Shown one piece after another: positions 1,908 through 55,808 of a stretch of DNA of 57,365 nucleotides. A model generated the notes under the pieces. It was not told where the DNA came from and did not search any database. It worked only from the letters and a program-made list of their open reading frames with translations. Numbering within the stretch: position 1 is the stretch's first letter; each line of letters begins with the position of its first letter. The position numbers and the translations under genes were made by a program. This stretch comes from a virus. Taxonomy: Duplodnaviria > Caudoviricetes. The stretch covers positions 1-57,365 of the IMG/VR virus record IMGVR_UViG_3300030001_000013; one strand, written 5' to 3'.

Positions 1908-1957
1908 TTGGCACTCTATAGAGCCTACCAACGCTTGATAAGCTCTAACAATGTCAA
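1908..1957 (-). repeat. hairpin repeat copy A (TTGACATT...AGTGCCAA family)
   Basis: Minus strand TTGACATTGTTAGAGCTTATCAAGCGTTGGTAGGCTCTATAGAGTGCCAA; five other copies found by eye. Confidence 0.9.
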
Positions 1958-2115
1958 TCATCAATAATTATTGATGTATAAGTCATTTTTGATAACATTC
2001 TTACTTTGTGACACTTTTTGCATTTGAATTTTACATTTTTACCTTTTGGTGAGAAATGTTCTTCGATCTCTGGAGAATTGCATTCAGGACATTCTAATCT
2101 ATAACCTGTTTTCAT
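1954..2115 (-). CDS. small zinc-ribbon protein (53 aa), not in ORF track
   Basis: Manual translation MKTGYRLECPECNSPEIEEHFSPKGKNVKFKCKKCHKVRMLSKMTYTSIIIDD; RBS AAGGGAG; stop TGA lies inside repeat A. Confidence 0.8.
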   Translation of the reverse strand: MKTGYRLECPECNSPEIEEHFSPKGKNVKFKCKKCHKVRMLSKMTYTSIIIDD

Positions 2116-2165
2116 TTTAATCGTCTCCCTTATATGTTCTAATCGAACCCCTTTTCTATAGTCTT

Positions 2166-2194
2166 ATTATAACTCTCTGCTATATTAATGTAAA
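2166..2194 (-). promoter_or_regulatory. sigma70-type promoter with putative operator (repeated)
   Basis: TTTACA-17-TATAAT; contains TATAACTCTCTGCTATA (plus strand). Confidence 0.8.
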
Positions 2195-2212
2195 GAATTA
2201 TATTACAAATAA

Positions 2213-2482
2213 TTATAAAATAAATAACATTGCAAGCCATGTGATAAATGCAATAATTAATGAAATTTGTCCAATCCCCGGAATCGCCCCGATTAATGCC
2301 GCTTGCCACCATAAAACAACGGTTGTTCTTCCAAAATACGTCAGCCATGTATTTAAAGAATAATGCCAAAATAAAGCATCAACAGCAATAACAATTCCAT
2401 AAATTATAACCGGAATTATGCAACCTTGACCATATATAAATAAACCGAATACTGTTTTTATTACGTTTTTAAATTTTTTCAT
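2213..2482 (-). CDS. small membrane protein
   Basis: 89 aa, mostly hydrophobic helices. Confidence 0.65.
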   Translation of the reverse strand: MKKFKNVIKTVFGLFIYGQGCIIPVIIYGIVIAVDALFWHYSLNTWLTYFGRTTVVLWWQAALIGAIPGIGQISLIIAFITWLAMLFIL

Positions 2483-2534
2483 CCCATTAACTCCCTTATA
2501 ATTTTATAAGAGGAGCAATTAAGCCCCTCCCTGA

Positions 2535-3272
2535 TTAATAAATTACGCCTGTTACGATTAAGAACCCATCTAATCCGGCTTTGATTGTTTCAATTTCGTG
2601 CTTTACTGCTTCTCGCAAATATCGATCATACTTAGGACAACTTAACTTGAATACTAACTTGTCATCCTGGCTTTTCGGTGCTACAATTTCTAATTCAATT
2701 TCAACTTCTTGAAAAAAGCCGCTTTCATTAAAAATTTCAATGTTTGGCAATATCACTTTTGGTAATGAAGTTGTTCCTTCGACTGAACCATTTTGGGTGG
2801 CAACCTTAACTGCAAAAGTATGATTGTTGTCATCATCAAACGACGATTCAAAATCAATGGTTGTATTTCCTTTAAATGTTTGCAGGTTCACAAGCAGACT
2901 TTCCAAACAACCTAATTCATCCTCTTCGCGGCGTTGAAAGAAATTTACGATTTCTTTTTGATAAAATGATGCACCATTTGAAGTTAAAATATTTCCCCAT
3001 TCTTCAACCTGCTGTGACAATTCATAAGCATATGTCACATGATCTTGATTTCTTTCGATAACCTGATCATTTAAGATAGCACATACTCTTTTTTCTGTAT
3101 ATGCAACTACTGCATTTTCTTTTACAGCCTTTGACTGTAACAACGCAATGAATGCCTGTGATGATTTTGCTTCGTATTTAAATCCTCTGTATTGGTAAAT
3201 CTCCGGCGCATCACCTTCGCGTACAATTACTTCTTTTGCTCCATCAACCATTTTTAATTCGATTTTTTCCAT
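2535..3272 (-). CDS. conserved phage protein (YfdQ/DUF2303-like)
   Basis: EV++REG motif and C-terminal pattern; paired with the upstream 112-aa gene; start moved to MEKIE. Confidence 0.5.
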   Translation of the reverse strand: MEKIELKMVDGAKEVIVREGDAPEIYQYRGFKYEAKSSQAFIALLQSKAVKENAVVAYTEKRVCAILNDQVIERNQDHVTYAYELSQQVEEWGNILTSNGASFYQKEIVNFFQRREEDELGCLESLLVNLQTFKGNTTIDFESSFDDDNNHTFAVKVATQNGSVEGTTSLPKVILPNIEIFNESGFFQEVEIELEIVAPKSQDDKLVFKLSCPKYDRYLREAVKHEIETIKAGLDGFLIVTGVIY

Positions 3273-3273
3273 A

Positions 3274-3612
3274 TTATTTAACTCCTCCATCTTCTGTTCC
3301 TGTCAATTTTGCTGGTACTGCCTGAAATAAATCAACCGCTTTTAATGCTTCGCGCGGTTTTTCTGTTTTCAATTTCATATCACCTGTTAATGTACAAAGA
3401 CCTTTGCGCTTGCTGACCGGAAATTTAGGTGTTACACTGCATTCAGCAACAACCATCGTATCCATATCCTCTGGCCTTGATAATGCGATTGTAATGCTAA
3501 TGCCGCCCTTTTGACCTTTTTGAATTGCTGACATTAATACTGGAATAATCGAATCAAACTTCTTGGCAACCTCGCCGCCACAAATGTTTTGCAATGTTAA
3601 TTCTTCTTCCAT
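3274..3612 (-). CDS. conserved phage protein (YfdP-like partner)
   Basis: LQNICGGEV..KFD and ISITI.L motifs; synteny. Confidence 0.45.
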   Translation of the reverse strand: MEEELTLQNICGGEVAKKFDSIIPVLMSAIQKGQKGGISITIALSRPEDMDTMVVAECSVTPKFPVSKRKGLCTLTGDMKLKTEKPREALKAVDLFQAVPAKLTGTEDGGVK

Positions 3613-3664
3613 ATCTTTTCCCCTTTATATTTATTTCGCACACGTTTCATGCGCAAACTCTCCG

Positions 3665-4366
3665 TTATCCTGCCACAACAACCTCAACGCCTGTTGCTCT
3701 CTGAATCTTGTCTTTGATCATTACTTCATCACTATTGCCATTGCTTAGATGCAATAAATAAATCCGTTCTGTTTTACTTAAATCATTTGCTTTGAAAAAT
3801 TTTATTGCATGTTCTAATGAAAAATGGCTTTCAACAATTCTATTTCGCAAGCCGCTATTCAAATTCCCATGCCCCATATTATCGTCAAGAATTTCCTTGA
3901 TATAATTTACCTCTGTGCAAAAATAATTGATACCTGCGAATTTATATTTACAATATGGCGTATCTACTAGATAAACGCCTTTTTTGTTTGTTGCACTACT
4001 TGCAAACATGTATCCGTAATTTGTTACATCATGGACTAAATCAAATGGCATTACGTTGAATGTTCCTATTTGATAATGCTTTTTAGGTTCAACGATCTTT
4101 ACCCTATGACCGGATACTTTCAATGCTTCTGCTGTATCCTGTGACATATAGCAATCAACGCCGCGTTTGATTAAATCCTTTATTGCCTTAGAATGATCAC
4201 CATGTGAGTGGGTAAGCAACACGCCGCCTAATCTGCTGAAATCAAAATCAATTTCGATCTGAATGTTTTTGAAGCTAATACCTGCATCCAATAATAAAAC
4301 CGTTTTCCCATCATCTACTATGCCGCAATTACCTGTACTGCCACTTGCAACAAACCGAATGTTCAT
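3665..4366 (-). CDS. metallo-beta-lactamase-fold hydrolase (YycJ-like nuclease)
   Basis: ASGSTGN, LLDAG, THSHGDH, HD, LLHLS motifs; next to RecT. Confidence 0.9.
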   Translation of the reverse strand: MNIRFVASGSTGNCGIVDDGKTVLLLDAGISFKNIQIEIDFDFSRLGGVLLTHSHGDHSKAIKDLIKRGVDCYMSQDTAEALKVSGHRVKIVEPKKHYQIGTFNVMPFDLVHDVTNYGYMFASSATNKKGVYLVDTPYCKYKFAGINYFCTEVNYIKEILDDNMGHGNLNSGLRNRIVESHFSLEHAIKFFKANDLSKTERIYLLHLSNGNSDEVMIKDKIQRATGVEVVVAG

Positions 4367-4587
4367 ATTTCATTCATCAACTTTTGTATGTCATCCCTAT
4401 TTTGAACTACAGCTTCTTTTATCTTTTCAAATATTTCAGGAGAATTATTCTTGTCAAATGATAATGACTGTGAATTTCCACTAGTACCTATATAAAACGA
4501 TCTATATTCTTCCAAATCTTTAATTTTTTTATTTACCTTTTCGAGATTTGATTTTAACAGATAATATTTTTCTACACGTTCATTCAT
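4363..4587 (-). CDS. hypothetical protein
   Basis: 74-aa ORF overlapping the next start. Confidence 0.55.
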   Translation of the reverse strand: MNERVEKYYLLKSNLEKVNKKIKDLEEYRSFYIGTSGNSQSLSFDKNNSPEIFEKIKEAVVQNRDDIQKLMNEI

Positions 4588-4602
4588 GTATTCATATGTT
4601 TT

Positions 4603-4971
4603 TCATCCATTTGCAATACCCGCCATTTCTAGCAACGTAACATTTTCATCAAATGTGCCTGAAATAGCCATTCCCCCGCCGTCTACATCTACTATATGCG
4701 GTTTTCCATTTCGATTCACAATACCTGTAATAGCTTTTTTTCTTAAATAAAAATTGATTCCTGCATCATCTGTCATTTTAATAAACTTACTAGGATCAAG
4801 CATTTTCCCTAATTCGTCTACTTGTTTATGTTCTGGAAAGAATTCTCTTGTTTCAGAACCAACTAAACCGATGGTAACATCTTTCTGAGCATTTAAAAAC
4901 AGCACTTTAATTTCATCCTGAGCTAATGCAACTTTTCCGTTTTCATCTTCGAAAATTAATAACTTACTCAC
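4603..4971 (-). CDS. hypothetical protein
   Basis: GTG start with AAGGGAG RBS; follows repeat B. Confidence 0.65.
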   Translation of the reverse strand: MSKLLIFEDENGKVALAQDEIKVLFLNAQKDVTIGLVGSETREFFPEHKQVDELGKMLDPSKFIKMTDDAGINFYLRKKAITGIVNRNGKPHIVDVDGGGMAISGTFDENVTLLEMAGIANG

Positions 4972-5010
4972 GTTTACCGTCTCCCTTTATATATTTTTTG
5001 TAGAATGCGT

Positions 5011-5060
5011 TTGGCATTCCATAGAGCCTACCAACGCTTGATAAGCCCTAGCAATGTCAA
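5011..5060 (-). repeat. hairpin repeat copy B
   Basis: Near-identical to copy A (plus ttggcattccatagagcctaccaacgcttgataagccctagcaatgtcaa). Confidence 0.9.
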
Positions 5061-5100
5061 CCTATTGCCGTTACATCTTAACCACCTTCTAACTTCTCTT

Positions 5101-5129
5101 ATTATAACTCTGTGCTATATAATTGTAAA
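5101..5129 (-). promoter_or_regulatory. sigma70-type promoter with putative operator (repeated)
   Basis: TTTACA-17-TATAAT; TATAACTCTGTGCTATA. Confidence 0.8.
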
Positions 5130-5159
5130 GCTTTTTATTACTAATATCTATATTTTATA

Positions 5160-6161
5160 TTAAAATGGGTCTGGTTCTTCTTCACTAATCAATGTTTGTT
5201 CCTGCACCTGCGATTTTTTAGTAGATGTTTTTGTTTCTTTCTTTGTTTCTGGCTTGCTTGCTTTCTTTTCTTCAACCTTTTGTTCCTGAATTGGCTTTTC
5301 TTCTGCCACATTCGCTTCCTGTGCTTCGATTACTTCGCCGCCCTTGTCATTATCTTCATCCATATCTAAAACCTCGCTATTGGCATTCTGAATGATCTCA
5401 GCTTCAATCACTTCATCTGTGATGTTTTTTTCAGAACGATTCAATGATTCAGCAATTAAATAACTATCATTTGAACCATTAATCAGGGGCTTGCATGTTC
5501 TATTAATGACTGTCTTTTTTGCCATTTCTTCGGAAAATTTACCATGGACAGAACCGGGCTTAACATTTCCATGGTCATCAATAGGTAACATTTTCGATTG
5601 TTTCCATGCTTGTTTTATCTGCTCAAATGTCATTATCTGTGTGACATTTCGTTTTTCATCAGGAAATTCGACTACGCAATAAGCCGCTTTGATCTTTGTA
5701 TTATCAATACTATCTAACGTCTGCTCATGCTTTGTAATAATTTTCTTGCCATGTTCAATTTTGTATTCAAATATATCACCTTCATAAACAACTTCGGCAT
5801 AAGCTTCACTAGCTCCCGCCATTGTCTTTACTAAGTGGATTGTTCCAAAATAGCTACGCTGAAAGGTTAGTGTGCCGCCATATACAATGAAATACCCTTG
5901 CTTTTTTACTGGATTCAATCCTTGTGTGATTACATCTAGCAACGCCAACATTACAGAATCTCGTGAACATACTTCCAACGCTGGTTTCCCTACCTTATCC
6001 GTAACACCTTGCAACATTAACCATGAAGCAGTTAAAACATTTGCCGGAATATATTCTTTCGGAAATACCAATTCCTTACTTGCTACATATTCGCTTACCT
6101 TATGCTGTACCGTCTGAATGATCTTTTCCTGCTGAACCGCTTTATCTTTATCAACTGCCAT
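5160..6161 (-). CDS. recT: RecT-family single-strand annealing recombinase
   Basis: GLNPVKKQGYFIVYG, RSYFG, VVYEGD.FEY, EMAKKTVINR; acidic/Lys-rich tail. Confidence 0.9.
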   Translation of the reverse strand: MAVDKDKAVQQEKIIQTVQHKVSEYVASKELVFPKEYIPANVLTASWLMLQGVTDKVGKPALEVCSRDSVMLALLDVITQGLNPVKKQGYFIVYGGTLTFQRSYFGTIHLVKTMAGASEAYAEVVYEGDIFEYKIEHGKKIITKHEQTLDSIDNTKIKAAYCVVEFPDEKRNVTQIMTFEQIKQAWKQSKMLPIDDHGNVKPGSVHGKFSEEMAKKTVINRTCKPLINGSNDSYLIAESLNRSEKNITDEVIEAEIIQNANSEVLDMDEDNDKGGEVIEAQEANVAEEKPIQEQKVEEKKASKPETKKETKTSTKKSQVQEQTLISEEEPDPF

Positions 6162-6162
6162 T

Positions 6163-6447
6163 TTATTTTTCCACCTTTTCGTCTAAATTTAAATTGATTA
6201 ACAATTCCTTTAGCTGTTCCACTTTTTCAATAACTTCCTGCAAAGAAGATGACATTTTTAATTCTTCATTGCATAATCTATCTAAAGCAATAATGATTGT
6301 AGGATAATAGCCGATTGAAGTCCATACGCCATCCGGTTTTAATTCTGTTTTCACTAGCTTTTGTAAAGCCCATTGACAGCGATCACTTGCTAATCTCCAT
6401 TTTTCATTAATACTGCATACTTTCGTATATCCACCCTCTGCCATCAT
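6163..6447 (-). CDS. hypothetical protein (possibly DUF5405-like)
   Basis: W.L.SD..QW.L and W..IGYY motifs. Confidence 0.5.
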   Translation of the reverse strand: MMAEGGYTKVCSINEKWRLASDRCQWALQKLVKTELKPDGVWTSIGYYPTIIIALDRLCNEELKMSSSLQEVIEKVEQLKELLINLNLDEKVEK

Positions 6448-8402: not shown

Positions 8403-8415
8403 GTTTTTCGCTCCC

Positions 8416-8640
8416 CTATGCTCTTCGTTCTTCTAAATAAGAAATGAAGGCTATTTTCTTTATTCTTACTGCTCTACCAACTCTTACGATTGGGCAATCC
8501 GGCTCCAATATAATATCACGAATTGTTCTTTCAGATAACTGTGTCAACTCTGTTGCTTGACCTACCGTTATTAAGCTTTCATCATTATTTTCAAGCCTTA
8601 CAAGAATCTTTTCCAGAACTTCCTTGATCTGCTCTTCCAT
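8416..8640 (-). CDS. excisionase-like HTH protein
   Basis: LITVGQATELTQLSERTI...VRVGRAVRI pattern. Confidence 0.8.
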   Translation of the reverse strand: MEEQIKEVLEKILVRLENNDESLITVGQATELTQLSERTIRDIILEPDCPIVRVGRAVRIKKIAFISYLEERRA

Positions 8641-8986
8641 CTTCCATCCCTCGCAAAGGTTCGTCTATAATAAATCTTTCAATTGGAAACCCTGATAACT
8701 GTGAAAGCTTTAACGCCTGTTCTGCTGTCGGCTTTCTTTTAAAACCGTCTTGGCCTGTTTCCCATTGACAAACAACTACCTGAGAAATTCCTAATTCTAT
8801 CGCAAGTTCAGATTGTTTCATATCTAATTTTTCTCTCAATTCATAAACTGCTTTTGCAATTGTATTCGTAAAATCTTCATCCTTTTTGTTGAAACGTCTG
8901 CGCCGTTTGCACTGATTTTTCAATTTCTGAATGTCGCCGTTGCATTCATCATGGAACTGACATTTTTTATTGTAGCAATAAATCAT
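8591..8986 (-). CDS. Cro-like XRE HTH regulator with Cys-rich N-terminus
   Basis: LREKLDMKQSELAIELGISQVVVCQWETG; divergent from the repressor. Confidence 0.8.
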   Translation of the reverse strand: MIYCYNKKCQFHDECNGDIQKLKNQCKRRRRFNKKDEDFTNTIAKAVYELREKLDMKQSELAIELGISQVVVCQWETGQDGFKRKPTAEQALKLSQLSGFPIERFIIDEPLRGMEDGRADQGSSGKDSCKA

Positions 8987-9019
8987 ACTGTATTCACCGC
9001 CTTTCCTTAACCTGTTCTT

Positions 9020-9048
9020 ATTATAACTCTCTGCTATAAATAAGTAAA
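9020..9048 (-). promoter_or_regulatory. lytic early promoter with putative operator
   Basis: TTTACT-17-TATAAT; TATAACTCTCTGCTATA. Confidence 0.75.
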
Positions 9049-9116
9049 GACTTTTATTGCTATAAATATTAATTTGTTACTTTTTAGCCTTTATTATAAT
9101 TATTGATTATATCTTA

Positions 9117-9178: not shown

Positions 9179-9556
9179 ATGAAAAATCTAGGGTCAAAAT
9201 TGAAAGAATTGCGGAAGATGGAACGCTTAACCACGAAAGAATTAGCGGACAAACTCCAATTGTCGCAACCCTATATTAGTCAGATTGAAAGCGGCGGGCG
9301 CGTTCCACATCCTAAGAACATTCAAAAAATGGCAGACTTTTTCAACGTCCCGTACGGATACCTTATGACAGACGAAGCAATCAACCTAGATGAATTTAAA
9401 CAGGTTGAGGGGCTAATTATAGATAGAGGTAAAGAGAAATATATTCCATATTATTTAGTAGTTGATAAAGCAATTGAGGAGGAAATAACCCCCAGTGAAT
9501 TAGAAGATGCAATCGATTTTGTTAAAAAATATAAAAATAAAACGCCCTCAACATAA
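9179..9556 (+). CDS. CI-like XRE-family repressor
   Basis: LKELRK..RLTTKELADKLQLSQPYISQIESG.R.P; no peptidase domain visible. Confidence 0.85.
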   Translation: MKNLGSKLKELRKMERLTTKELADKLQLSQPYISQIESGGRVPHPKNIQKMADFFNVPYGYLMTDEAINLDEFKQVEGLIIDRGKEKYIPYYLVVDKAIEEEITPSELEDAIDFVKKYKNKTPST

Positions 9557-9779: not shown

Positions 9780-10898
9780 ATGAATAAACGCGCGAATGGT
9801 GAAGGAACATTTAGAATCAGAGATAATGGAACATGGGAATGCATGATAAGATACAATGGAAAACGCCATAGTGTATATGGTAAATCAAGAAAAGAATGCA
9901 TCACAAAATTAAAAGAATTAAAAAAGAAACTTGATTTTGGAATTGCAGAAAAATCAAAGCATATGACATATGAAACTCTTTTAAAAAATTATCTTGAAAA
10001 TATTATAGCGATCAAGAATAGACCGTCAACCTATGATAATTATAAAATCGTTATAGATAATCACCTAATACCTCATTTAGGAAAATATAAAGTTGATAAA
10101 TTAACGCGTACTGATATTCAAGACATGATCAAGAAAGAAAAGAAAGCGGGAAAATCTGCAAGCACTATCGGCTTAATTCATCATGTTTGCAAGACTTCGC
10201 TTGCCTATGCTATTGAATTAAAAATCATCATGGAAAATCCATCTTTCGGCGTTGTTAAGCCACAAATTGATAAAAAGGAAATGAGCGTATTAACCGAAGA
10301 CCAATTCCGTCATTTACGTGATGTTGGCGGCGATATTCGATCCAAAGAAAGAATGTTTTCCTGTTTTATATTTATGTTTTACACCGGACTGCGGCGCGGT
10401 GAAGCACTAGGATTAAAATGGTCTGATATTGATATGACTGAAAAATCATTATCAATGAAACGTGCTGTCACTAAATCAACATCAAAAGGCATTATAATTA
10501 CAAAAGGAAAAACTGCCCGCGCTGTACGAGCAATACCACTGCCGGAAAACTCAATAAAAGAATTGCTGATCTTTAAAGAAACACAAGCAAAAGAAAAAGC
10601 ATTTTACGGTAAAAAATACAATAATGAAAATTGGATATTCTGCCGACCGGACGGGAAACGTTATTACCCTACATCATTACGAAAAATATTCCTCCGTATT
10701 CTGGCTCTAGCAGACATTCCACCGATTCGAGTACATGATACTAGGCATACATTTGCAACGTTCTTGATGCTTGCAGGAGAGAACCCCAAGACTGTACAGG
10801 CAATTATGGGTCATGCTAATATTTCAACGACTTTAGGATATAGTCATGTTACTGATGGATTAAAACGTCAAGCGGCTGATAAATTGGATAATATATAA
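9780..10898 (+). CDS. int: tyrosine integrase
   Basis: N-terminal KRANGEG arm-binding motif; TGLRRGE, HDTRHT, MGH..ISTTLGYSH catalytic motifs. Confidence 0.95.
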   Translation: MNKRANGEGTFRIRDNGTWECMIRYNGKRHSVYGKSRKECITKLKELKKKLDFGIAEKSKHMTYETLLKNYLENIIAIKNRPSTYDNYKIVIDNHLIPHLGKYKVDKLTRTDIQDMIKKEKKAGKSASTIGLIHHVCKTSLAYAIELKIIMENPSFGVVKPQIDKKEMSVLTEDQFRHLRDVGGDIRSKERMFSCFIFMFYTGLRRGEALGLKWSDIDMTEKSLSMKRAVTKSTSKGIIITKGKTARAVRAIPLPENSIKELLIFKETQAKEKAFYGKKYNNENWIFCRPDGKRYYPTSLRKIFLRILALADIPPIRVHDTRHTFATFLMLAGENPKTVQAIMGHANISTTLGYSHVTDGLKRQAADKLDNI

Positions 10899-11130: not shown

Positions 11131-11201
11131 AGCCAATCCAGGGAATCGAACCCCATATTTTCGCTGTGCCGCGAAACGCTTTACCTTTAAGCTATATTGA
11201 C
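11131..11201 (-). ncRNA. degenerate tRNA-like RNA (Cys-like; 8-nt anticodon loop, no encoded CCA)
   Basis: Cloverleaf by eye: GTCAATA/GATTGGC acceptor, GCTT/AAGC D arm, TTTCG/CGAAA stem, TGGGG-TTCGATT-CCCTG T arm. Confidence 0.65.
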
Positions 11202-11281: not shown

Positions 11282-11415
11282 TGAGTTACAATTATATTGA
11301 TTTCAGTTATTGTGATGTTGAGCGGAACTTCATACATTTTCATGCTCCATAATGTGCGCTTGTTCCCGCACTTCCCGCGTGTCTCACCACGCCGCACCAA
11401 CTTCTTACAATTCTT

Positions 11416-11444
11416 ATTATACTTCTAAGCTATTCCATTGTCAA
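11416..11444 (-). promoter_or_regulatory. perfect consensus sigma70 promoter
   Basis: TTGACA-17-TATAAT pointing into the non-coding tRNA-like region. Confidence 0.85.
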
Positions 11445-11489
11445 TACTTTTATTACTAAAAGCTATAAATTTATTGATGTTTTTTGAAT

Positions 11490-13783: not shown

Positions 13784-13859
<76 letters not shown>

Positions 13860-43864: not shown

Positions 43865-44578
43865 TTAAAATGGAACTTTCAACGTAGGATTCGTACTTTT
43901 CTTGAAATCATATTTCACTATGTTGTTTCCCCACTTATGAATCATAATCTCTGACTGATATTTTTCTTCGTCAATTGTTCTATAAGCCGCACACCCGCCC
44001 GCCATATCTAAATGTTTTGCAATGTAATGCCATTTATCAAACCTCAATACTTTACGATACTTGAAACAATGTTGTAAAAAGAAATCATAATCTTCATTCA
44101 GACTTAAACTTTCATCATATCTCAAATCATTTTTTATATGGCAACATAGCGTTCCTAATACCGGAACATTTACCGATATAGGCAACCATTCGTAATAGAA
44201 TAAATTAGCTTCGTTTACGTTTACGCCCCATAACTTAGAACCCGCACCACTCGCTATTTCAAATCCCATTTTTAAGAAATCCATAAAATAATCTTCATCT
44301 ACTGAAATAGGACTTCCATTTTCCCTGTATCCTACTTTTACTATGTCATCATCCATCATGACCACATGATCATCTTTACTGAATCCATAGTCTAACATCC
44401 AATTTCTTATTCTTGCCATATTACCACGTATGTTATCAGGCATCGTGACAATCTCGCCGCCCTCCTTATCCCTGTATTCCATGTATTCAAACTCATGCAC
44501 ACATAATACTGCATCGTGTAGCCAACGCCTTGTAAGGACTTCCCCTGCGCGCTTATATGATGGTACTAATATAATCAT
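43865..44578 (-). CDS. GREB1-like / TET-associated glycosyltransferase (TAGT, GT-A fold)
   Basis: VPSYKR, RNW, MMDDDI, LWG, EDYDF, GGC...R motifs. Confidence 0.8.
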   Translation of the reverse strand: MIILVPSYKRAGEVLTRRWLHDAVLCVHEFEYMEYRDKEGGEIVTMPDNIRGNMARIRNWMLDYGFSKDDHVVMMDDDIVKVGYRENGSPISVDEDYFMDFLKMGFEIASGAGSKLWGVNVNEANLFYYEWLPISVNVPVLGTLCCHIKNDLRYDESLSLNEDYDFFLQHCFKYRKVLRFDKWHYIAKHLDMAGGCAAYRTIDEEKYQSEIMIHKWGNNIVKYDFKKSTNPTLKVPF

Positions 44579-45300
44579 GACTTGCTATTAACCAACTTTA
44601 CTATGTCAGCACCCCGAACAACACGCCCTATGCTTTTTCTGCTCGTCTTGCCTGTCTTTTCATCTTTTATGCGCATGCCTGTTGAATCCGTTACTATCTT
44701 TAAGCCGAATGTTTCTATAGCCGCGTTCCAATCAACCGAATTATCAAAATACAAAACTAATATATTATGCTCCTCGAATAATTCAGGCGTTAACTCAATT
44801 TCCGGCTTGTCGATTATGTCCGCGTTTTCCGTCATCATCTTTTCTATTTCGTCCTCTGTAAAACCTGTTAGCTCGATATCAATTATTCCTGTGTCTACCT
44901 CTGCCAATAAATCTTTTAACGAACCCTTATCATTCTTCGATAATTCCGCTATTTTGTTATCTGCTAATAAATCCGCGTATTCTTCGGCTTCGCTTGCATA
45001 ATCTTGACGATCTATTGGAACTTGACTAACTCCTAATTTCTGTGCCGCCATTAATCGGCCATGACCCTTTACAACAAATCCCGATCTATTAGATACAACA
45101 ATCGGATTTCGCCACCCCTGCGCCTTTATGATCTTTGCTAATAATTCAATCTGTTTGTCATTATGCTTATTAGGATTCTTTGGCTGTGGTACTACACTTT
45201 CAATATTCACGATTTCAGAATGTGAACAATATACCGGAATACCATCTGCTAGAAATTCGACTGTTCCCTCATATACATAATTATCTGGTAAACTTTCCAC
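44575..45300 (-). CDS. ParB/Srx N-terminal domain protein
   Basis: P.NPNKH...QI..LA..I...GW.NPIVV, GHGRL.AA, L.ADNKIAE. Confidence 0.85.
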   Translation of the reverse strand: MESLPDNYVYEGTVEFLADGIPVYCSHSEIVNIESVVPQPKNPNKHNDKQIELLAKIIKAQGWRNPIVVSNRSGFVVKGHGRLMAAQKLGVSQVPIDRQDYASEAEEYADLLADNKIAELSKNDKGSLKDLLAEVDTGIIDIELTGFTEDEIEKMMTENADIIDKPEIELTPELFEEHNILVLYFDNSVDWNAAIETFGLKIVTDSTGMRIKDEKTGKTSRKSIGRVVRGADIVKLVNSKS

Positions 45301-47017: not shown

Positions 47018-47018
47018 T

Positions 47019-48593: not shown

Positions 48594-49140
48594 TTACCGT
48601 ACCTTCTCTTTCTAGGCTTTTAATAACGCACATTGCTAATGAAAATGCAGACTGTTGCATTGATTCTTTACTTAAACTTTCGGCACTATCGCTACCCTTT
48701 GCCAATTCTATCATCATAAGCAATGTTACCCGCATTATTACTTCCTGTTCTGCATTATAAATTATACCTTGATTTCCTTCTTTCATGATATTCCATAATA
48801 TATATTGGCTTGTTGGATTCGAAACAATATCTAAACCACTTGGATTTTTTGAATATACCCATAAATCATTTATCATTTTGTTATATATCATTGCATCATT
48901 GCCTAATATTGCTGAAATCTTCAAAATTTCCGTTGCATTAAACTTTGTGCCTGCACTATCGCATACCAATTTGCCGAAATTCTTAACCATCCGCACTGTA
49001 CACATTAGCAAATCAGGCAAATTTGTATTCTGACTGATCAACTGCGGACGTTTACCGCCAACGCTTACTAAAATGTACTTGCTTGTACTATCCTTAACGA
49101 TTTCCATTGCCTCGAATCTGCTCATTTCTTTGTTTTCCAT
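48580..49140 (-). CDS. hypothetical protein
   Basis: 186 aa with AGGGAG RBS; follows repeat C. Confidence 0.6.
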   Translation of the reverse strand: MENKEMSRFEAMEIVKDSTSKYILVSVGGKRPQLISQNTNLPDLLMCTVRMVKNFGKLVCDSAGTKFNATEILKISAILGNDAMIYNKMINDLWVYSKNPSGLDIVSNPTSQYILWNIMKEGNQGIIYNAEQEVIMRVTLLMMIELAKGSDSAESLSKESMQQSAFSLAMCVIKSLEREGTVNEKK

Positions 49141-49178
49141 GTTATCGTCTCCCTATATTTATTTTTTGGTGGAATGGT

Positions 49179-49227
49179 TTGGCACTCCATGAAGCCCACT
49201 CGATAGAATGGACTTTTGCAATGTCAA
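49179..49227 (-). repeat. hairpin repeat copy C
   Basis: Minus strand TTGACATTGCAAAAGTCCATTCTATCGAGTGGGCTTCATGGAGTGCCAA. Confidence 0.9.
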
Positions 49228-49235
49228 TTTTTCAC

Positions 49236-49538: not shown

Positions 49539-49582
49539 GTTTTTCGCTCCTTTGTGTTCTAATAGAACCTTTTCTATATCTT

Positions 49583-49611
49583 ATTATAACTCTCTGCTAT
49601 AAATATGTAAA
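49583..49611 (-). promoter_or_regulatory. sigma70-type promoter with putative operator (repeated)
   Basis: TTTACA-17-TATAAT; TATAACTCTCTGCTATA; upstream terminator at about 49634-49659. Confidence 0.8.
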
Positions 49612-49664
49612 GCTTTTTATTATTATTAGCAATAAAAAAAGACCACGAAATTGTGGTCTAATCT

Positions 49665-50117: not shown

Positions 50118-50332
50118 CGTTTATGCCCCTTTTTACTATCTTGTTCTTTTTTCTTCCTGCGCTCTGCCGCTTCTTCCGATTCATAATACCTACAATGTAA
50201 CATTCTGTGTCTGCATGAATTACAATGCTGTGTTACGCAAAACATAATCGTGCAACTTCTTGTTTTTGGTGGTTCGTTTATTTTTTTTGATTCAGCGCAA
50301 TCTAGGCACTGACAATCATCTTTATTTCTCAT
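50114..50332 (-). CDS. small Cys-rich protein
   Basis: CQCLDC and further Cys; start moved to MRNK. Confidence 0.5.
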   Translation of the reverse strand: MRNKDDCQCLDCAESKKINEPPKTRSCTIMFCVTQHCNSCRHRMLHCRYYESEEAAERRKKKEQDSKKGHKR

Positions 50333-50837: not shown

Positions 50838-51070
50838 TCTTTAACCGCTCCCAACAATAAGAAAAATTCCCACGCTACACGAATAAATAATCCAAATAGA
50901 AAGCCGCCTGAAATAGTTATCCATATTACATGAACAATGTCTTCTATTACTTGTAATGCCTTGTTTTCATTTTCTTCATCTTCATTACCAACCCACCTAT
51001 CAAAATCATTGCATTCACTGCATCCCCTAACCATGCTATTTTTTTGACACGTATCACAATTTTTAATCAT
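50825..51070 (-). CDS. small protein with CxxC motifs and a TM helix
   Basis: CDTC, CSEC, hydrophobic C-half. Confidence 0.55.
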   Translation of the reverse strand: MIKNCDTCQKNSMVRGCSECNDFDRWVGNEDEENENKALQVIEDIVHVIWITISGGFLFGLFIRVAWEFFLLLGAVKECLK

Positions 51071-51522
51071 TTCGCAACTACCTTCTTTAATTTTTTATTT
51101 TCTAACCTAATCTTTATTAATTTATCTGTTTCAATCCATCCTGTTGAACTATACTTTTCCGATGCTGTGATGACTACTAGCGGCGTATCATATCGAAATG
51201 CAAATAGCTTTCTTTTTATTGAGAAGACATCTGTCAACATTCCTTTTGTGTCAATATATACCTCGCTACCATCTGCATACTTAACCCAAAAATCAGCATA
51301 ATACATAATTGGTTTATGATGTTCGCCGTTCTTATCAAAAGCCGCTTGTAATTCAATCTTAGGCTGTAGCTTGATCTCTAATATCTTGCCGGATTCTATT
51401 TCCCTTTTAAGATAGCAATAATATTTACCCTCCATCACTGAATCAAACTTATGACCATCTATTAAACAGGTTTTATTTTTCATCTTACTTTTGTTGTCGC
51501 TCACGCTTATTGATTTATTCAT
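51067..51522 (-). CDS. DUF1064-family PD-(D/E)XK nuclease-like protein
   Basis: DG..FDS..E..YY, LQP, Y.ADF, ID.KG, KRKLF. Confidence 0.85.
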   Translation of the reverse strand: MNKSISVSDNKSKMKNKTCLIDGHKFDSVMEGKYYCYLKREIESGKILEIKLQPKIELQAAFDKNGEHHKPIMYYADFWVKYADGSEVYIDTKGMLTDVFSIKRKLFAFRYDTPLVVITASEKYSSTGWIETDKLIKIRLENKKLKKVVAK

Positions 51523-51594
51523 TTTATCCCCCATATACAGAAACAAGGAAACCCGTTACGGCTTCCTTGCTCATTGCAATAACTTTATAATTTT

Positions 51595-51623
51595 ATTATA
51601 ACTCTCAGCAATAATTTAGGCAA
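51595..51623 (-). promoter_or_regulatory. promoter, variant of the repeated family
   Basis: TTGCCT-17-TATAAT; TATAACTCTCAGCAATA. Confidence 0.65.
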
Positions 51624-51641
51624 TGAAAATACTTTTTATCT

Positions 51642-52364
51642 TTAAACTATTTCTCTACTAGGCTTTGAATCTGCGCGTGTTACATAATATTTATTTGTGA
51701 TCAATGTTGCAGGTTCTTTATTATCTCCGAATGACTGCGGTGCAAAACGATCTACAAAAACACGTTCGCCGCATTCCCTGCAAGCACAAAAGTTTGTATC
51801 TGCGAATAATCTAGCAAAATATGTTGCGCCGCATCCACAATCAATTTTGTATAATACTTTGTTTAAATCGCGCTGAACTGTTGTTTCATTGTTTTTTATA
51901 CTGTAATCAGGAACTAAATCAGTTTCTATGTTTGATTTAACATTTTCTTTGCTTACATTAGGCGGCAATAAAAGACCTTCACTGTGATCTGTAGCTGTTT
52001 TACCTTGCAAAAATCTGCTAAATTCTGACTTATGCTCTTGAATAATATGTTTGCTCATTGAATTTGTAATATTTTTAAATACGTCTGCATCTACTTCGGG
52101 AATGCTCATATTTACTGTACGACCGCATCCACAATTATGGTGTTCTATATTTTTCGCTTTTGGCTCTGATGTGCCAACTTCTGTAATTTCTATGCTGATC
52201 ACATTTTTTAAATCAATTGAAAATGTTTGACCATCACCAGATTTTGTGAAGAAAATACCACCATTTCCATGGGCTTTCGCTACTGCCAACGCCACATTTA
52301 ATTTTAACGCATATGTGTATTTTCTTCCTGCTCTTGTTGTCAATTCTAATAATGATTCGTTCAT
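51642..52364 (-). CDS. hypothetical protein with zinc-ribbon motifs
   Basis: CGCG twice and CREC. Confidence 0.6.
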   Translation of the reverse strand: MNESLLELTTRAGRKYTYALKLNVALAVAKAHGNGGIFFTKSGDGQTFSIDLKNVISIEITEVGTSEPKAKNIEHHNCGCGRTVNMSIPEVDADVFKNITNSMSKHIIQEHKSEFSRFLQGKTATDHSEGLLLPPNVSKENVKSNIETDLVPDYSIKNNETTVQRDLNKVLYKIDCGCGATYFARLFADTNFCACRECGERVFVDRFAPQSFGDNKEPATLITNKYYVTRADSKPSREIV

Positions 52365-52627
52365 TTTTCCGCCGCCTTTTTAATATTTTTCACAACATCT
52401 GAGGATTTAACTCTTAAATCGCTAATCAGCTTATCAATCGCAATCTCTGCGGTCATTATCCCTTTTGCTTCTGCATTAATAGCCAATCCCGAAATCAACG
52501 CTGACATTCCAACTAACATATCTTGATCGGTTGCCCTGTTTGAATAAACAAACTGTTCATCTTTTTTTGCGTTTAAATCCAATAAGATATACTTTCTACC
52601 TCTGCTTACTATGTTTCTTGCTTTCAT
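52361..52627 (-). CDS. hypothetical protein
   Basis: 88 aa, in operon. Confidence 0.55.
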   Translation of the reverse strand: MKARNIVSRGRKYILLDLNAKKDEQFVYSNRATDQDMLVGMSALISGLAINAEAKGIMTAEIAIDKLISDLRVKSSDVVKNIKKAAEK

Positions 52628-52629
52628 AT

Positions 52630-52911
52630 TTACGCCGCCTTTACAATGTACAATATTTTATTGAATTGATAACCTTTTACTTTTTTTCTTCTTGACTTAG
52701 TTATCCTTCGTGAATTTGTTCTTCTTTTTTCTGTTTTACCTCTAATCCTATCATATTTTCTTATTTGATCTATGTTGTTATTTCTGTGTATCATTACTCT
52801 TTTCTTTGTGCATTCTTTGCATTGATTTAAATGACCATCAGCCATTTGACTATGTTTATAAAATTCACTTATTGGAAGCGTTTTACCACATTTTCTACAA
52901 ATTTTATCCAT
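52630..52911 (-). CDS. zinc-finger protein, probably a truncated HNH-type endonuclease
   Basis: KICRKCG..LP.SEFY.....DG..N.CKEC, but no HNH core follows. Confidence 0.55.
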   Translation of the reverse strand: MDKICRKCGKTLPISEFYKHSQMADGHLNQCKECTKKRVMIHRNNNIDQIRKYDRIRGKTEKRRTNSRRITKSRRKKVKGYQFNKILYIVKAA

Positions 52912-52915
52912 AATA

Positions 52916-53326
52916 TTACCAAGGAATTTCATCGTCAGGGAATACCTGACTGCCAAACGAATCAGCCCCACTTGTAGCACCTGAATCATTTCCGGCAGGT
53001 GTTGCCGCTGTTTGCGATTTTGAACCTAGAAACTCAACATTGTTTACCATGACTTCCACAACGTATACTTTCTTGCCGTCCTTATCATCATATGTCCTTG
53101 TATTGATTCGACCGCCTACAGCAATATGTGACCCTTTTTGTGATGCATAATTTCCCATTGCTTCTGCGGTTTTTCCGAATGCTACGCAAGGAACGAAATC
53201 AGCTTTCTTTTCACCTTTTACAAACTTATTTACTGCTAGATTAAAATTCAAAACGCAGGTTCCTTCCTGCGTATATCTACACTCTGTATCCCTTGTAAGA
53301 TGACCAATTAAATTTACATCATTCAT
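52916..53326 (-). CDS. ssb: single-stranded DNA-binding protein
   Basis: MN.V.LIG.LTRD.E.RYT, ADF, G.I.TR.Y, acidic DDEIPW tail. Confidence 0.93.
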   Translation of the reverse strand: MNDVNLIGHLTRDTECRYTQEGTCVLNFNLAVNKFVKGEKKADFVPCVAFGKTAEAMGNYASQKGSHIAVGGRINTRTYDDKDGKKVYVVEVMVNNVEFLGSKSQTAATPAGNDSGATSGADSFGSQVFPDDEIPW

Positions 53327-53349
53327 TATTTATTACCTCCATTTATTTT

Positions 53350-53670
53350 CTAATCGCAATAACTTCTATTACAATGTGGACAACCTGTAATTAATTCTGT
53401 GCTTGCTCTTTCAAGCGAAATACCATATACACGGTCAACCATTTCACCATCAATATTACATTCTGTTCCTCTTGAATATGGCGCATCTGGATTGTCTTTA
53501 TATCCTACATTCTGATAAATATTTTTATTGCAATTCCAACAAATTCCGCTATGAGGTGCGAAATCAGGATAACCATTTTTATTCTGATAATCCGATTGTG
53601 ATTTTGCGCATTCACTAATTTCTTTATCAGTCTTTCTTATTAACTTTTCCGTAAAGATACCCCATTTCAT
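53350..53670 (-). CDS. hypothetical zinc-binding protein
   Basis: FAP..G.CWNC and ITGCPHCNRSYCD. Confidence 0.65.
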   Translation of the reverse strand: MKWGIFTEKLIRKTDKEISECAKSQSDYQNKNGYPDFAPHSGICWNCNKNIYQNVGYKDNPDAPYSRGTECNIDGEMVDRVYGISLERASTELITGCPHCNRSYCD

Positions 53671-54463
53671 ATTCTATATTTTTATTGCCTAATGCTGTTT
53701 CAATAGCCGCCACATCTTCTTTTGAAATGTTAAATATTTTCATCATAACACTGACATTGGGTTTATCCTTTGTCTTGATCTCTCTTTTTACTTCCTGCAC
53801 GGCCTTGAATGAAACTTCCTTGCCTTTGTTATCCTGCATTACCTTGGTTTGCTCTTCTGGTTCTAAGCTTGCCAACTCTGCCGCTGTTGAAAACTTTAAA
53901 TTGTCTTTTTTCATTTCTTCTTTTAATTCAGGAATTAGATTATTTTCGATGTTATCCATCTTAGCAATCTTCGCAGACGAAACGCCTATTGTCTTTGAAA
54001 CAAAATCCCGCAATCTTCCGGGTACTTTATTTTCTTTGCAATACTCAATAAGCGGCTCTTTCAATCGCTTGTACTGCTCGATCTTTTCCCATTCAGATAA
54101 TTTTCTTGTTCCCATATTGGCAATGATAATAGCAATCTGTTCCTCTGATCTACTCCTGAATGTCTCTACCTGACAAGGAACATGATCGTCTATATCAACA
54201 CCCCTGCTAATTAGATTCATCATTGCCTGCCGCCGTCTATGCCCTGAAATTACTTTATATCCACCCCCTTCTAACGGCGTAACAATCAGATTTTCTTTTA
54301 CGCCGCCCCTGATTTCAATTGCATCCTCTAAACTTTCAATGTCGCTTAGTGTATAAAAATTATCTTCATGTGGGACTAATTCATAAACACTGATCTGTTT
54401 CATAACACCTTTTTCAACTAAATCATCTTTTTTGATGAAACTATTTAATAAACCCATTGTCAT
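53627..54463 (-). CDS. parB: ParB-family partition protein
   Basis: L.P...N.Y, Y.VISGHRR, AN...R, HTH region. Confidence 0.85.
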   Translation of the reverse strand: MTMGLLNSFIKKDDLVEKGVMKQISVYELVPHEDNFYTLSDIESLEDAIEIRGGVKENLIVTPLEGGGYKVISGHRRRQAMMNLISRGVDIDDHVPCQVETFRSRSEEQIAIIIANMGTRKLSEWEKIEQYKRLKEPLIEYCKENKVPGRLRDFVSKTIGVSSAKIAKMDNIENNLIPELKEEMKKDNLKFSTAAELASLEPEEQTKVMQDNKGKEVSFKAVQEVKREIKTKDKPNVSVMMKIFNISKEDVAAIETALGNKNIEYEMGYLYGKVNKKD

Positions 54464-54469
54464 TACCTC

Positions 54470-55213
54470 CTATAGATTGAAATACTCTTTTGTAAATGTA
54501 ATATAATCCATTGTTGCACCGCTCCGGCGTGAATAATTAATAAGTGGACGTTGTACAAATGTGCTACCTGCTACTTTTGCAGAATAGCGAATCCTTGTAT
54601 TAAAAATCTTGTAATCTTTGATGTTTTGATCGCTTATAATTTCATTTTCTGTTTTATTGTAACGAGTTATCAAGCACCCTTTAAACGACAATTTAGGATT
54701 TATTTCCTTCACTTCTTCTATAATCCCCTTTAATTGATCGAATCCGTCAAAGCTGAACTGATCCACTACGACAGGTACAATGATTTCATCTGATGCACTT
54801 AGAACATTTGTAACGCTTGCGTTTATGTCCGGCGGGTTATCAATAATACAATAATCATAATCATTAACGCTTGCTAATGCTCTTTGCAATATCTTGGCTG
54901 TTCCAATGCTCATTTTTGCCGCAAGCATGTTATTTGTTTCAAACAATTTCATATTAGAAGGTAATACGTCTAGCCCTTCATATTTCGTATGCTGAATAAC
55001 ATTTTCAATTGATTTACTTTTCAAAAGAACATCTGAAATACTTGGATTTTCCTGATCATACAATCCAAAAAACTTGCTTGTGTTGCCCTGCTTGTCATTA
55101 TCAATGATTAATACTTTTTTATGGAACATTGTTGCTAGAATATGAGAAACATTAATCGAAGTGATACTTTTCCCCACGCCGCCTTTTAGATTCATAATGG
55201 TTATAACTTTCAT
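54470..55213 (-). CDS. parA: ParA-family ATPase
   Basis: KGGVGKS, IDNDKQGN, IIDNPP. Confidence 0.92.
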   Translation of the reverse strand: MKVITIMNLKGGVGKSITSINVSHILATMFHKKVLIIDNDKQGNTSKFFGLYDQENPSISDVLLKSKSIENVIQHTKYEGLDVLPSNMKLFETNNMLAAKMSIGTAKILQRALASVNDYDYCIIDNPPDINASVTNVLSASDEIIVPVVVDQFSFDGFDQLKGIIEEVKEINPKLSFKGCLITRYNKTENEIISDQNIKDYKIFNTRIRYSAKVAGSTFVQRPLINYSRRSGATMDYITFTKEYFNL

Positions 55214-55244
55214 GCTTATCGTCTCCCTTGCTTTTTGTAGAGTT

Positions 55245-55292
55245 TTGGCACTCTATAGAGCCTATCAACTTGATAAACTCTAACAATGTCAA
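55245..55292 (-). repeat. hairpin repeat copy D
   Basis: plus ttggcactctatagagcctatcaacttgataaactctaacaatgtcaa. Confidence 0.9.
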
Positions 55293-55296
55293 ATAT

Positions 55297-55476
55297 TTAG
55301 CAATGGACTGATTTATCTGTGTAATAATAAAAATCACTTATTACCTTTGATCTATTTTCCGGCGTATTAGGCAAATTATATCCGCTTTTATCATCACCGC
55401 AAAATAATTCTCCATCATTATTTATACCGCAAGACATTCCGCTTTCTTTATCTTCTTTAAATATTTTCATTTTCAT
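55297..55476 (-). CDS. cassette-like small protein (59 aa), not in ORF track
   Basis: Manual translation MKMKIFKEDKESGMSCGINNDGELFCGDDKSGYNLPNTPENRSKVISDFYYYTDKSVHC; RBS AAGGGGA. Confidence 0.75.
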   Translation of the reverse strand: MKMKIFKEDKESGMSCGINNDGELFCGDDKSGYNLPNTPENRSKVISDFYYYTDKSVHC

Positions 55477-55496
55477 TATCCCCTTTAAATTTTATT

Positions 55497-55545
55497 TTGG
55501 CACTCCATGAAGCCCACTCAATCGAATGGACTTTTGCAATGTCAA
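55497..55545 (-). repeat. hairpin repeat copy E
   Basis: Near-identical to copy C. Confidence 0.9.
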
Positions 55546-55546
55546 A

Positions 55547-55744
55547 TCATGAATGAGATAAACACTTTTTGCATATATTTCCTGACGTTGGATTTTCAAC
55601 TGGTTCACCTTGTAATTCATTTAATCTATCTAAATTGTAAGATTGACAGCATGGTATAATTCTTGATTCCCCATTGATAAATGGTTTATCATTTCCTACT
55701 TTATGCCACATTCCACTTTTTGACTTCATCCACATTTCAATCAT
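55547..55744 (-). CDS. cassette-like small Cys/His protein
   Basis: 65 aa, WH..., CC, CKKC; lies between repeats F and E. Confidence 0.75.
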   Translation of the reverse strand: MIEMWMKSKSGMWHKVGNDKPFINGESRIIPCCQSYNLDRLNELQGEPVENPTSGNICKKCLSHS

Positions 55745-55760
55745 TCCTTTTTAATTTATT

Positions 55761-55808
55761 TTGGAACTCTATAGAACCCACTCACCGAATGAGTTCTAAC
55801 AATGTCAA
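55761..55808 (-). repeat. hairpin repeat copy F
   Basis: plus ttggaactctatagaacccactcaccgaatgagttctaacaatgtcaa; A/D-type flanks with a C/E-type core. Confidence 0.88.

Follow-up and report, generated by a model that had tools for sequence, protein, structure and literature searches.

What are six copies of one hairpin doing in the early region of a temperate phage? The question is raised by IMG/VR record IMGVR_UViG_3300030001_000013, the genome of a virus of the Caudoviricetes, which was analysed over its whole length of 57,365 bases (the window in what follows). An imperfect palindrome of about 50 nucleotides (nt) recurs there on the minus strand. A first-pass annotation, made from the letters and a list of open reading frames (ORFs), had suggested that selection acts on it as a single-stranded structure, such as an antitermination site, an RNase III-type processing site or a single-stranded DNA (ssDNA) recombination site. 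We find that the selected fold is the RNA fold of the sense strand. Of the three functions proposed, RNase III-type processing would fit its anatomy best and antitermination less well. Two further features were absent from the first-pass annotation, namely an alternative 3′ mini-hairpin in about half of the copies and the use of the hairpins as junctions at which cassettes are gained and lost.

The copies (A to F, Table 1) match the pattern TTGACATTG-N(20-45)-CCAAA, which occurs six times on the minus strand of the window and not at all on the plus strand. When the window was shuffled (n = 100), the mean was 0.04 matches and no shuffle reached six. The coordinates in the first-pass annotation were right to within 1 nt, all six copies being minus-oriented as described, and the stems and conserved ends that it quoted agree with the sequence as written. 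A covariance model built from the six copies (R1), run with filters off, scored them at 72.1-76.4 bits, and the next match, at 15 bits, was on the opposite strand at the same sites. Neither this model nor a second one (R2), built from 17 sequences, revealed a seventh copy in the window. The hairpins matched no Rfam family: in a search of the whole window against Rfam 15, two tRNAs alone reached the gathering threshold, and over positions 55180-55850 the best E-value was 0.17, all matches falling far under the gathering scores. A match to a known Rfam family, which according to the first-pass annotation would remove the novelty of the element, was thus not obtained.

Homologues were collected by pattern scans of public collections, with the matches filtered by the covariance model. 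Eleven further distinct copies were found in contigs of related phages: three in L124, two in L202, one each in L197, L198, L200, L204 and L215, and one common to L125, L127, L128, L196 and L201 (the numbers for L197, L198, L200 and L202 cover the stretches examined). L124 is closely related: its ParA and DnaD-like replication protein share 93-96% amino-acid identity with those of the window. Among the viral contigs with relatives of these two proteins it alone has hairpins, the other 13 loci giving no model match. Whole-record model searches of six viral records found one copy each in the complete relatives G004 and G005, and L198 has in addition a weak, diverged copy at 4922-4974 (22 bits). 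Six copies in the window is the largest number in any record examined. The hairpins of the relatives often lie between ordinary ORFs and before unrelated genes. The gene that follows the single hairpin of L200 (8111-9259, with a homologue in L125, L128, L196 and L201) encodes a 382-amino-acid (aa) protein in which a nine-residue repeat, SAATNTG(D/N/Y)(Q/R), recurs about 30 times in tandem.

Searches of bacterial genome contigs gave no comparable hairpin. A 15-base pattern was too loose, with at least 117 single chance matches. With a 19-base pattern, 9 of 40 loci were scored by the model and none exceeded 25.4 bits; with a degenerate pattern, 78 of at least 120 loci were scored, the best at 32.9 bits. 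Among these 9 of 40 and 78 of at least 120 candidate loci, none was a prophage copy in a named host genome, and several pattern matches in Clostridium chromosomes were discarded as not being hairpins when read. Full-text searches of the literature (main texts) yielded no description of the element, nor of hairpin repeats in the early regions of Clostridia-type phages.

The six window copies share one helix, and their differences preserve it. Pairing is retained in 97.4% of 114 pair cells, 18 of them as G-U or U-G, and 6 of 19 pairs are changed on both sides, upholding the statement in the first-pass annotation that the inner stem changes sequence yet keeps pairing. The three unpaired cells are a C.U in copy F and an A.C in each of copies C and E. 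Copy F is indeed a hybrid, as had been noted: its outer upper stem is of the A type and its inner stem of the C/E type, and the hybrid is symmetric. None of 500 shuffles reached the covariation score of the six copies, and sliding the partner columns by 1-3 positions lowered pairing to 31-51%. Covariation in a larger alignment had been set beforehand as a test. In the 17 distinct copies, aligned by fitting to the covariance model, 97.2% of 322 pair cells are standard pairs (51 cells being G-U), and in 9 of 19 pairs double changes preserve the pairing (43 cells). Again 0 of 500 column shuffles reached the covariation score, and slid partner columns were 33-49% paired. RNAalifold independently predicts the same helix, and single-sequence folding yields it in 16 of the 17 copies.

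The helix amounts to about 22 base-pair (bp) equivalents, made up of 19 modelled pairs, two mismatches and a bulge, and thus spans about two helical turns. Its lower part has 3 bp at the base and 4 bp above them, with an invariant A.C mismatch in between; an invariant G.G mismatch, 1 bp and a bulge of 1-2 nt (columns 42-43) follow. Both mismatches, A7.C50 and G12.G45, are present in 17 of 17 copies; the evidence they give is structural. The 1-bp step between the G.G mismatch and the bulge is U-A in nine copies and C-G in eight. Above the bulge, an upper stem of 11-13 bp covaries freely and carries a loop of 3-5 nt that varies in sequence and length.

When folded as RNA, the sense strand had the better minimum free energy (MFE) in all 17 copies, -15.3 to -21.0 against -7.4 to -19.1 kcal/mol for the antisense strand, with a margin of just 0.4 in L197. 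The covariance models scored the copies at 58.9-76.4 bits on the sense strand and at no more than 23 bits on the antisense strand, and the 51 G-U cells of the sense strand become A.C mismatches on the other, in line with the G-U bias reported from six copies. With flanks included, the window copies folded as RNA with MFE of -16.7 to -23.8 kcal/mol (z -3.1 to -4.1). DNA parameters gave -4.8 to -7.3 kcal/mol (z -1.3 to -2.1); in three of the six, the MFE structure included the lower stem. Covariation, the advantage of the sense strand and the marginal DNA fold therefore demonstrate selection at the RNA level. The earlier proposal that a single-stranded structure of the sense strand is under selection is well supported by these results together with the RNAalifold prediction.

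The same data bear on a double-stranded DNA site, that is, an inverted repeat or cruciform recognized by a protein, either as the parS centromere of the adjacent ParB or as an operator. Copy D lies directly upstream of parA-parB, and TTGACA is part of an imperfect inverted repeat made by the outer arms. We nevertheless find such a site very hard to credit: the sequence of the inner stem varies while pairing is kept, G-U cells on one strand are mispaired on the other, and the hairpins of relatives precede unrelated genes. Moreover, the TTGACA is not followed after 16-18 nt by a -10-like hexamer, for which reason its use as a promoter -35 element was also rejected. Three other candidates were dismissed: an intrinsic terminator (no copy has a T run), a sigma-54 site on the plus strand (on reading the sequence) and a CRISPR-repeat mimic (unlike one in its length and its variable stem).

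The hairpins lie in a region punctuated by a second, separate repeat. This repeat, of about 65 nt and likewise on the minus strand, has the form TTTACA-17-TATAAT, and its spacer TATAGCAGAGAG and an A-rich block upstream are conserved (five stronger and two weaker copies, Table 1). The conserved spacer suggests that the copies are probably early promoters of one family sharing one operator, and that the whole early region is probably divided into repressor-controlled units. All six hairpins are co-oriented with the genes, and no terminator-like site separates the strong promoters from them. Hairpin B is in a leader; A, C and F come after the small ORF that opens their respective promoter units (53, 100 and 73 aa); and downstream of F, hairpins E and D stand in tandem, each preceded by one small gene (65 and 59 aa). 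The description of the hairpins as downstream of the repeated early promoter therefore holds for B (41 nt) and for A, C and F, but E and D have no strong promoter of their own and stand in tandem behind F.

At the level of single nucleotides the placement is tight. The hairpin starts 0-10 nt past the upstream stop codon, and in the window it ends 15-38 nt ahead of the next start codon, which has a Shine-Dalgarno sequence; it overlaps neither the Shine-Dalgarno sequence nor the start codon. The TGA within TTGACA is itself the upstream stop in A (ORF 1954..2115), in F (ORF 55805..56026), in L202b and in L198, as judged from ORF coordinates, and in L124b and L204, as judged from the reading frame. 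The copies are thus essentially intergenic, as the first-pass annotation had it, with the refinement that A and F contain the stop codon of the ORF before them. Taken together, the promoters, ORFs and terminators would place the hairpins within the early and replication mRNAs.

Such a location could suit a processive antitermination site that acts, like lambda nut or HK022 put, in the nascent RNA and modifies RNA polymerase to read through the terminators between early units. Like nut and put, the hairpins are RNA structures that occur soon after the early promoters of a temperate phage or after a first small gene: B begins 41 nt and the L200 copy about 14 nt past a promoter, A, C and F come after the first small ORF, and the positions recall those of nutL and nutR. 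The three terminator-like sites in Table 1 follow units. We consider this function distinctly unlikely, however. F, E and D are three tandem copies within one unit, and many copies in relatives lie between ordinary ORFs. Recognition of nut boxB is loop-specific, yet here the loops are not conserved, and the long single helix has nothing of the two-hairpin shape of put. Each unit also has its own strong, operator-bearing promoter just past the preceding terminator, so that read-through would be unneeded. No N-like protein was recognizable, although such proteins are hard to recognize. An identification of the hairpin with nut or put was rejected on the grounds of the three tandem copies in one unit and the lack of a conserved loop and of two-hairpin architecture.

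We tentatively favour, with somewhat less than even confidence, an intercistronic processing or stabilizing signal for host RNase III or a functional equivalent; both the cleavage and the identity of the enzyme are putative and read from anatomy. In the early region of T7, RNase III sites lie in tandem between single small genes. The RNase III reading was reached because of the helix of about 22 bp, the conserved internal mismatches, the variable loops and the covarying 3′ mini-hairpin described below, and also because of the tandem placement between single genes and the one leader copy. Loops that vary on a constant, irregular helix are to be expected if the helix is recognized by its shape. 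Substrates of E. coli RNase III are described as typically spanning two helical turns, and internal loops or bulges as restricting cleavage to one strand, which leaves protective 3′ hairpins (passages in PMC1540722). The RNase III of Bacillus (Bs-RNase III) cleaves early mRNA of phage SP82, according to work cited in PMC4838370.

A second, alternative pairing is available in 8 of the 17 copies (A, B, C, D, two in L124, and those of L125 and L200). In these, the 3′ lower arm can pair with the sequence immediately downstream instead, forming a mini-hairpin of 6-8 bp whose loop contains CCAAA (free energy -6.3 to -8.5 kcal/mol). Its arms covary across copies, occurring as AGAGTG/CGCTCT, AGAGTG/CACTCT, GAATGC/GCATTC and TGGAGTG/CATTCCA. 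Among the nine copies that lack it, eight have a short A/T-rich spacer and then a Shine-Dalgarno sequence within 4-13 nt; for the L197 copy neither a mini-hairpin nor a Shine-Dalgarno sequence was found. A stem-loop at the 5′ end, or a ribosome-binding site near it, can protect mRNAs of Gram-positive bacteria.

Under the RNase III reading, the hairpin would be transcribed as a cis-acting element of early and replication mRNAs, and a double-strand-specific endoribonuclease would cut the irregular middle of the helix. The upstream message would be left ending in a protective hairpin. The freed 3′ arm would then fold into the mini-hairpin at the new 5′ end of the downstream message (8 of 17 copies), or a Shine-Dalgarno sequence would end up about 10 nt from that end (eight of the other nine, L197 having neither). 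Each gene or gene block would thereby gain a stability of its own.

The resemblance to the RNase III sites of T7 and SP82 would extend to several features. There, too, irregular sense-strand hairpins of about two helical turns are repeated between early genes, upstream of the next ribosome-binding site, with one promoter-proximal copy in a leader and several in tandem; and there, too, mismatches or bulges would separate the upper from the lower stem and the loops would not be conserved. The present element differs in having no Rfam relationship, in belonging to a temperate phage with a probably Clostridia-like host, and in that its cleavage is putative. It differs further in that the sequence of the lower stem is near-invariant and in that about half of the copies add the covarying 3′ mini-hairpin.

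Several observations weigh against a processing site. The lower arms barely vary: 16 of 17 copies have an identical TTGACATTG. Pair 8/49, in the lower stem, shows one double change, C-G to U-A in L202, and is broken in 3 of 17 copies. RNase III is not known to require a near-invariant arm sequence, and this invariance suggests either a sequence-specific protein or recombinational homogenization. In addition, when flanks were included, the computed MFE structure of A, B and D contained the upper hairpin together with the mini-hairpin rather than the lower stem, so that the full 22-bp helix may not be the dominant form in these three copies. Finally, the L200 copy begins about 14 nt past the -10 hexamer, at the extreme 5′ end of the transcript, where processing would be less obviously useful.

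The first of these points is accommodated by an alternative in which RNase III does not cleave. The hairpin could be the binding site of a sequence-specific RNA-binding protein of phage or host, or a passive stabilizer or insulator that, for example, blocks 3′-5′ exonucleases after cuts made elsewhere or uncouples the translation of neighbouring genes. REP-type intercistronic stabilizers act as such passive hairpins. An invariant lower stem and two invariant mismatches beneath a variable upper stem form the pattern of a protein-recognized motif, the position right after stop codons recalls 3′ stabilizers, and a partner could be sought among the early proteins without a family. On the other hand, no candidate RNA-binding protein was recognized, and the lack of overlap with Shine-Dalgarno sequence or start codon argues against a direct translational operator. 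This alternative also leaves the constant length of the helix and the covarying 3′ mini-hairpin unexplained. We consider it unlikely, though by no means negligible.

Apart from their RNA fold, the hairpins have a history as junctions. Comparison among related phages shows that, their arms being conserved, they are crossover points at which one-gene cassettes were inserted, deleted or moved. Homology between the window and L124 ends exactly at the 5′ edges of hairpins A (1957) and D (55293). The stretch of the window that runs from F through the 65-aa gene, E and the 59-aa gene to D corresponds in L124 to a single hairpin, whose stem is of the F type and whose 3′ flank is of the D type; elsewhere in L124, upstream of the A-type hairpin, stands a homologue of the 65-aa gene, with hairpins. 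In a second pair of relatives, L202 equals L204 plus a unit of 249 nt (one hairpin and a 60-aa gene). The junction falls within the 5′ arm that is shared, and the C.A mismatch of L204 at pair 8/49 resembles the scar of an exchange with this unit. The 60-aa gene of L202, with a hairpin on both sides, is 49% identical to the 59-aa gene of the window, and L198 has a 65-aa gene 71% identical to that of the window, followed by the diverged hairpin. Since the two mapped crossovers lie in different arms, at columns 8-17 (L202/L204) and columns 38-49 (window/L124), they fit homologous exchange at conserved arms and not site-specific cutting at one fixed point. RecT, an SbcC-like protein and a Holliday-junction resolvase are among the gene products of the phage.

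It is also conceivable that the element is a mobile or recombinogenic palindrome with no RNA function, kept for cassette exchange as a PeSL-like linker or as a REP/MITE-like selfish element, with a DNA fold that an enzyme of recombination or transposition requires. Cassette indels and relocations do have their junctions in the hairpin arms, the three recombination genes are at hand, and phage recombinases are reported to recombine diverged DNA (PMC3945230). Homology patches need no pairing, yet 9 of 19 pairs are kept by double changes, and the strand bias and weak DNA fold indicate RNA. No transposase-like gene was recognized among the proteins scanned, and all copies have one orientation relative to the genes. 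We regard a purely recombinogenic role as improbable.

The PeSLs (promoter-early stem-loops) of T4-type phages are nonetheless the nearest evolutionary parallel. They are described as conserved intergenic motifs flanking small genes of unassigned function where early regions are plastic; by crossing over at these motifs, closely related phages insert, delete and replace single-gene cassettes (passages in PMC2839356). PeSLs combine a sigma-70 promoter with a terminator stem-loop. Like them, the present hairpin flanks variable small ORFs and is a crossover site between relatives (window/L124 and L202/L204). Unlike them, it forms no promoter with its TTGACA and has no T run or terminator, the promoter repeat being a separate element, and it shows RNA-type covariation, which is not a defining feature of PeSLs. 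An assignment of the hairpin to the PeSLs was rejected, as the motif has no internal promoter or terminator.

The last of the three functions in the first-pass annotation, a folded ssDNA site on the sense strand, which is the lagging-strand template, could take the form of an attC-like recombination site or of a priming (ssi-type) site. The layout is reminiscent of integron cassettes, with one small promoterless ORF per imperfect palindrome, and as in attC sites there are conserved stem bases around a variable centre, fixed mismatches and a strand-specific fold. Against this stand the marginal DNA fold, with the lower stem in the MFE structure of half of the window copies, and the sole tyrosine recombinase, which reaches 46.7 bits with the integron-integrase model TIGR02249 (cut-off 265). 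The crossover positions, moreover, are not fixed and share no cleavage point, and the conserved arms are presumably unlike the attC core. For priming sites, the restriction of six copies to a stretch of about 13 kb would be unlike such a set. An ssDNA site is accordingly disfavoured and in our judgement quite improbable. An identification with attC itself was rejected on account of the integrase score, the weak DNA fold and the different crossover arms.

A broader version of this idea would make the hairpins the recombination sites of an integron-like cassette system that is native to temperate Clostridia-type phages and lacks an IntI-type integrase. The sense strand would fold single-stranded during transcription (in an RNA-DNA context) or on the lagging-strand template; RecT, the SbcC-like protein and the resolvase, or else an unrecognized small early protein that reads the invariant lower stem, would take up, excise and shuffle the one-gene cassettes; and the RNA fold would be secondary or dual-purpose. 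We give this combined proposal little credence.

The window is a complete, circularly permuted temperate siphophage genome. The record is rated 100% complete and is present in peat metagenome runs, among which no RNA run was listed. It is a circular permutation because its ends are contiguous both in L124, where window 55994-57365 (L124 1120-2491) runs directly into window 2-42 (L124 2489-2529), and in contigs of peat runs containing this phage, which are possibly the record's own source. By this contig evidence, the two ends of the record, which bear the hairpins, join into a single early region about 13 kb long. In four runs, the DNA contigs showed assembly breaks and cross-matches at the promoter and hairpin repeats and gave no independent cassette variant. 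In L124, the 116-aa gene at 44..394 is absent, 10 nt replacing 363 (window 43-405); this indel is not bounded by hairpins.

Every annotated gene except the integrase and the CI-like repressor is on the minus strand. In order of transcription, these include genes for the SbcC-like protein, RecT, a metal hydrolase, the DnaD-like replication protein, ParA, ParB and SSB, followed by endonuclease VII/HNH, the Holliday-junction resolvase, regulators, terminase and structural proteins. ParB-like genes number two (44575-45300 and 53627-54463); one adjoins parA, and the second, just before the packaging genes, is also like a ParB-like nuclease or the N-terminal part of a DNA methyltransferase. Two minus-strand tRNA genes (11131-11201 and 13787-13859; Rfam scores 32.9 and 70.2 bits) lie near the lysis/integration end of the late region. 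The top matches of terminase and ParA among deposited phages were to phages of Clostridium, of Enterocloster and from human faeces, at 41-54% amino-acid identity; because these are the closest, the host is probably Clostridia-like. A blastn search of 54400-57365 against deposited phages and plasmids gave no relative at the DNA level.

Many of the small early genes are without assignment. In the early region, 22 of the 43 ORFs scanned had no PHROGs family, and Pfam added just a domain of unknown function to one. Three hairpin-adjacent ORFs (55805-56026, 55547-55744 and 1954-2115) have paired-cysteine motifs (CxxC, CC...CxxC) that suggest zinc ribbons; none had a PHROG match, and the first two had no Pfam match either. 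A search with the 65-aa cassette protein returned no relatives from bacterial genome contigs or viral contigs. A translation-initiation leader, AGGGAGACGATAA-N-ATGAAA, is repeated on the minus strand ahead of several early genes (34-59, 2107-2132, 49131-49156, 55208-55229 and 55462-55487) and could serve as a second short homology patch for recombination.

Table 1. Hairpins, promoter repeats and associated features of the window (positions are those of the whole stretch)
Feature	Position	Strand	Context
Hairpin A	1907..1957	minus	upstream of DnaD-like replication gene; contains the TGA stop of the 53-aa ORF before it
Hairpin B	5010..5060	minus	leader, 41 nt past the -10 hexamer of the early promoter 5129-5101
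Hairpin C	49178..49227	minus	preceded by the first ORF (100 aa) of the unit whose promoter is at 49611
Hairpin D	55244..55292	minus	directly upstream of parA
Hairpin E	55496..55545	minus	between the 65-aa and 59-aa cassette genes
Hairpin F	55760..55808	minus	hybrid stem; contains the TGA stop of the 73-aa ORF before it
Mini-hairpin of A	1900..1918	minus	CCAAA loop
Mini-hairpin of B	~5001-5021	minus	
Mini-hairpin of C	~49170-49189	minus	
Mini-hairpin of D	~55238-55255	minus	
65-aa cassette gene	55547..55744	minus	zinc-ribbon-like; between hairpins F and E
59-aa cassette gene	55297..55476	minus	between hairpins E and D
Promoter repeat, stronger	2153-2217	minus	core 2166-2194
Promoter repeat, stronger	5088-5152	minus	core 5101-5129
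Promoter repeat, stronger	9007-9071	minus	core ~9020-9048; precedes Cro-like gene
Promoter repeat, stronger	49570-49634	minus	core 49583-49611
Promoter repeat, stronger	56064-56128	minus	core 56077-56105; belongs to the F-E-D-parAB unit
Promoter repeat, weaker	11403-11467	minus	core at 11444
Promoter repeat, weaker	51582-51646	minus	core ~51595-51623
Terminator-like hairpin with T run	56146..56171	minus	closes the unit preceding F-E-D-parAB
Terminator-like site	49640-49659	minus	before the copy C unit
Terminator-like site	43002-42976	minus	after a unit
Cro-like gene	8591-8986	minus	faces integrase and CI-like repressor
CI-like repressor	9179-9556	plus	
Integrase	9780-10898	plus	ordinary tyrosine recombinase

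The element would work like the T7 and SP82 sites and evolves like the PeSLs, which would make it a lineage-specific version of a known phage device; a new mechanism would be involved only if the invariant lower stem recruits a dedicated protein. If this is true, the hairpins represent an uncatalogued family of structured RNA, with clean covariation over 17 distinct sequences and no Rfam model, and they are an easy experimental target, a 50-nt RNA with natural compensatory variants. They are also useful for annotation, in that they flag cistron boundaries and mosaic junctions. Intercistronic processing of the T7/SP82 style would be extended to temperate phages of anaerobic soil and peat Bacillota, and the PeSLs would be joined by a second and independent case of a regulatory repeat serving also as a linker for the exchange of single-gene cassettes. 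Such a hairpin linker would help to explain how small accessory early genes spread among phages.

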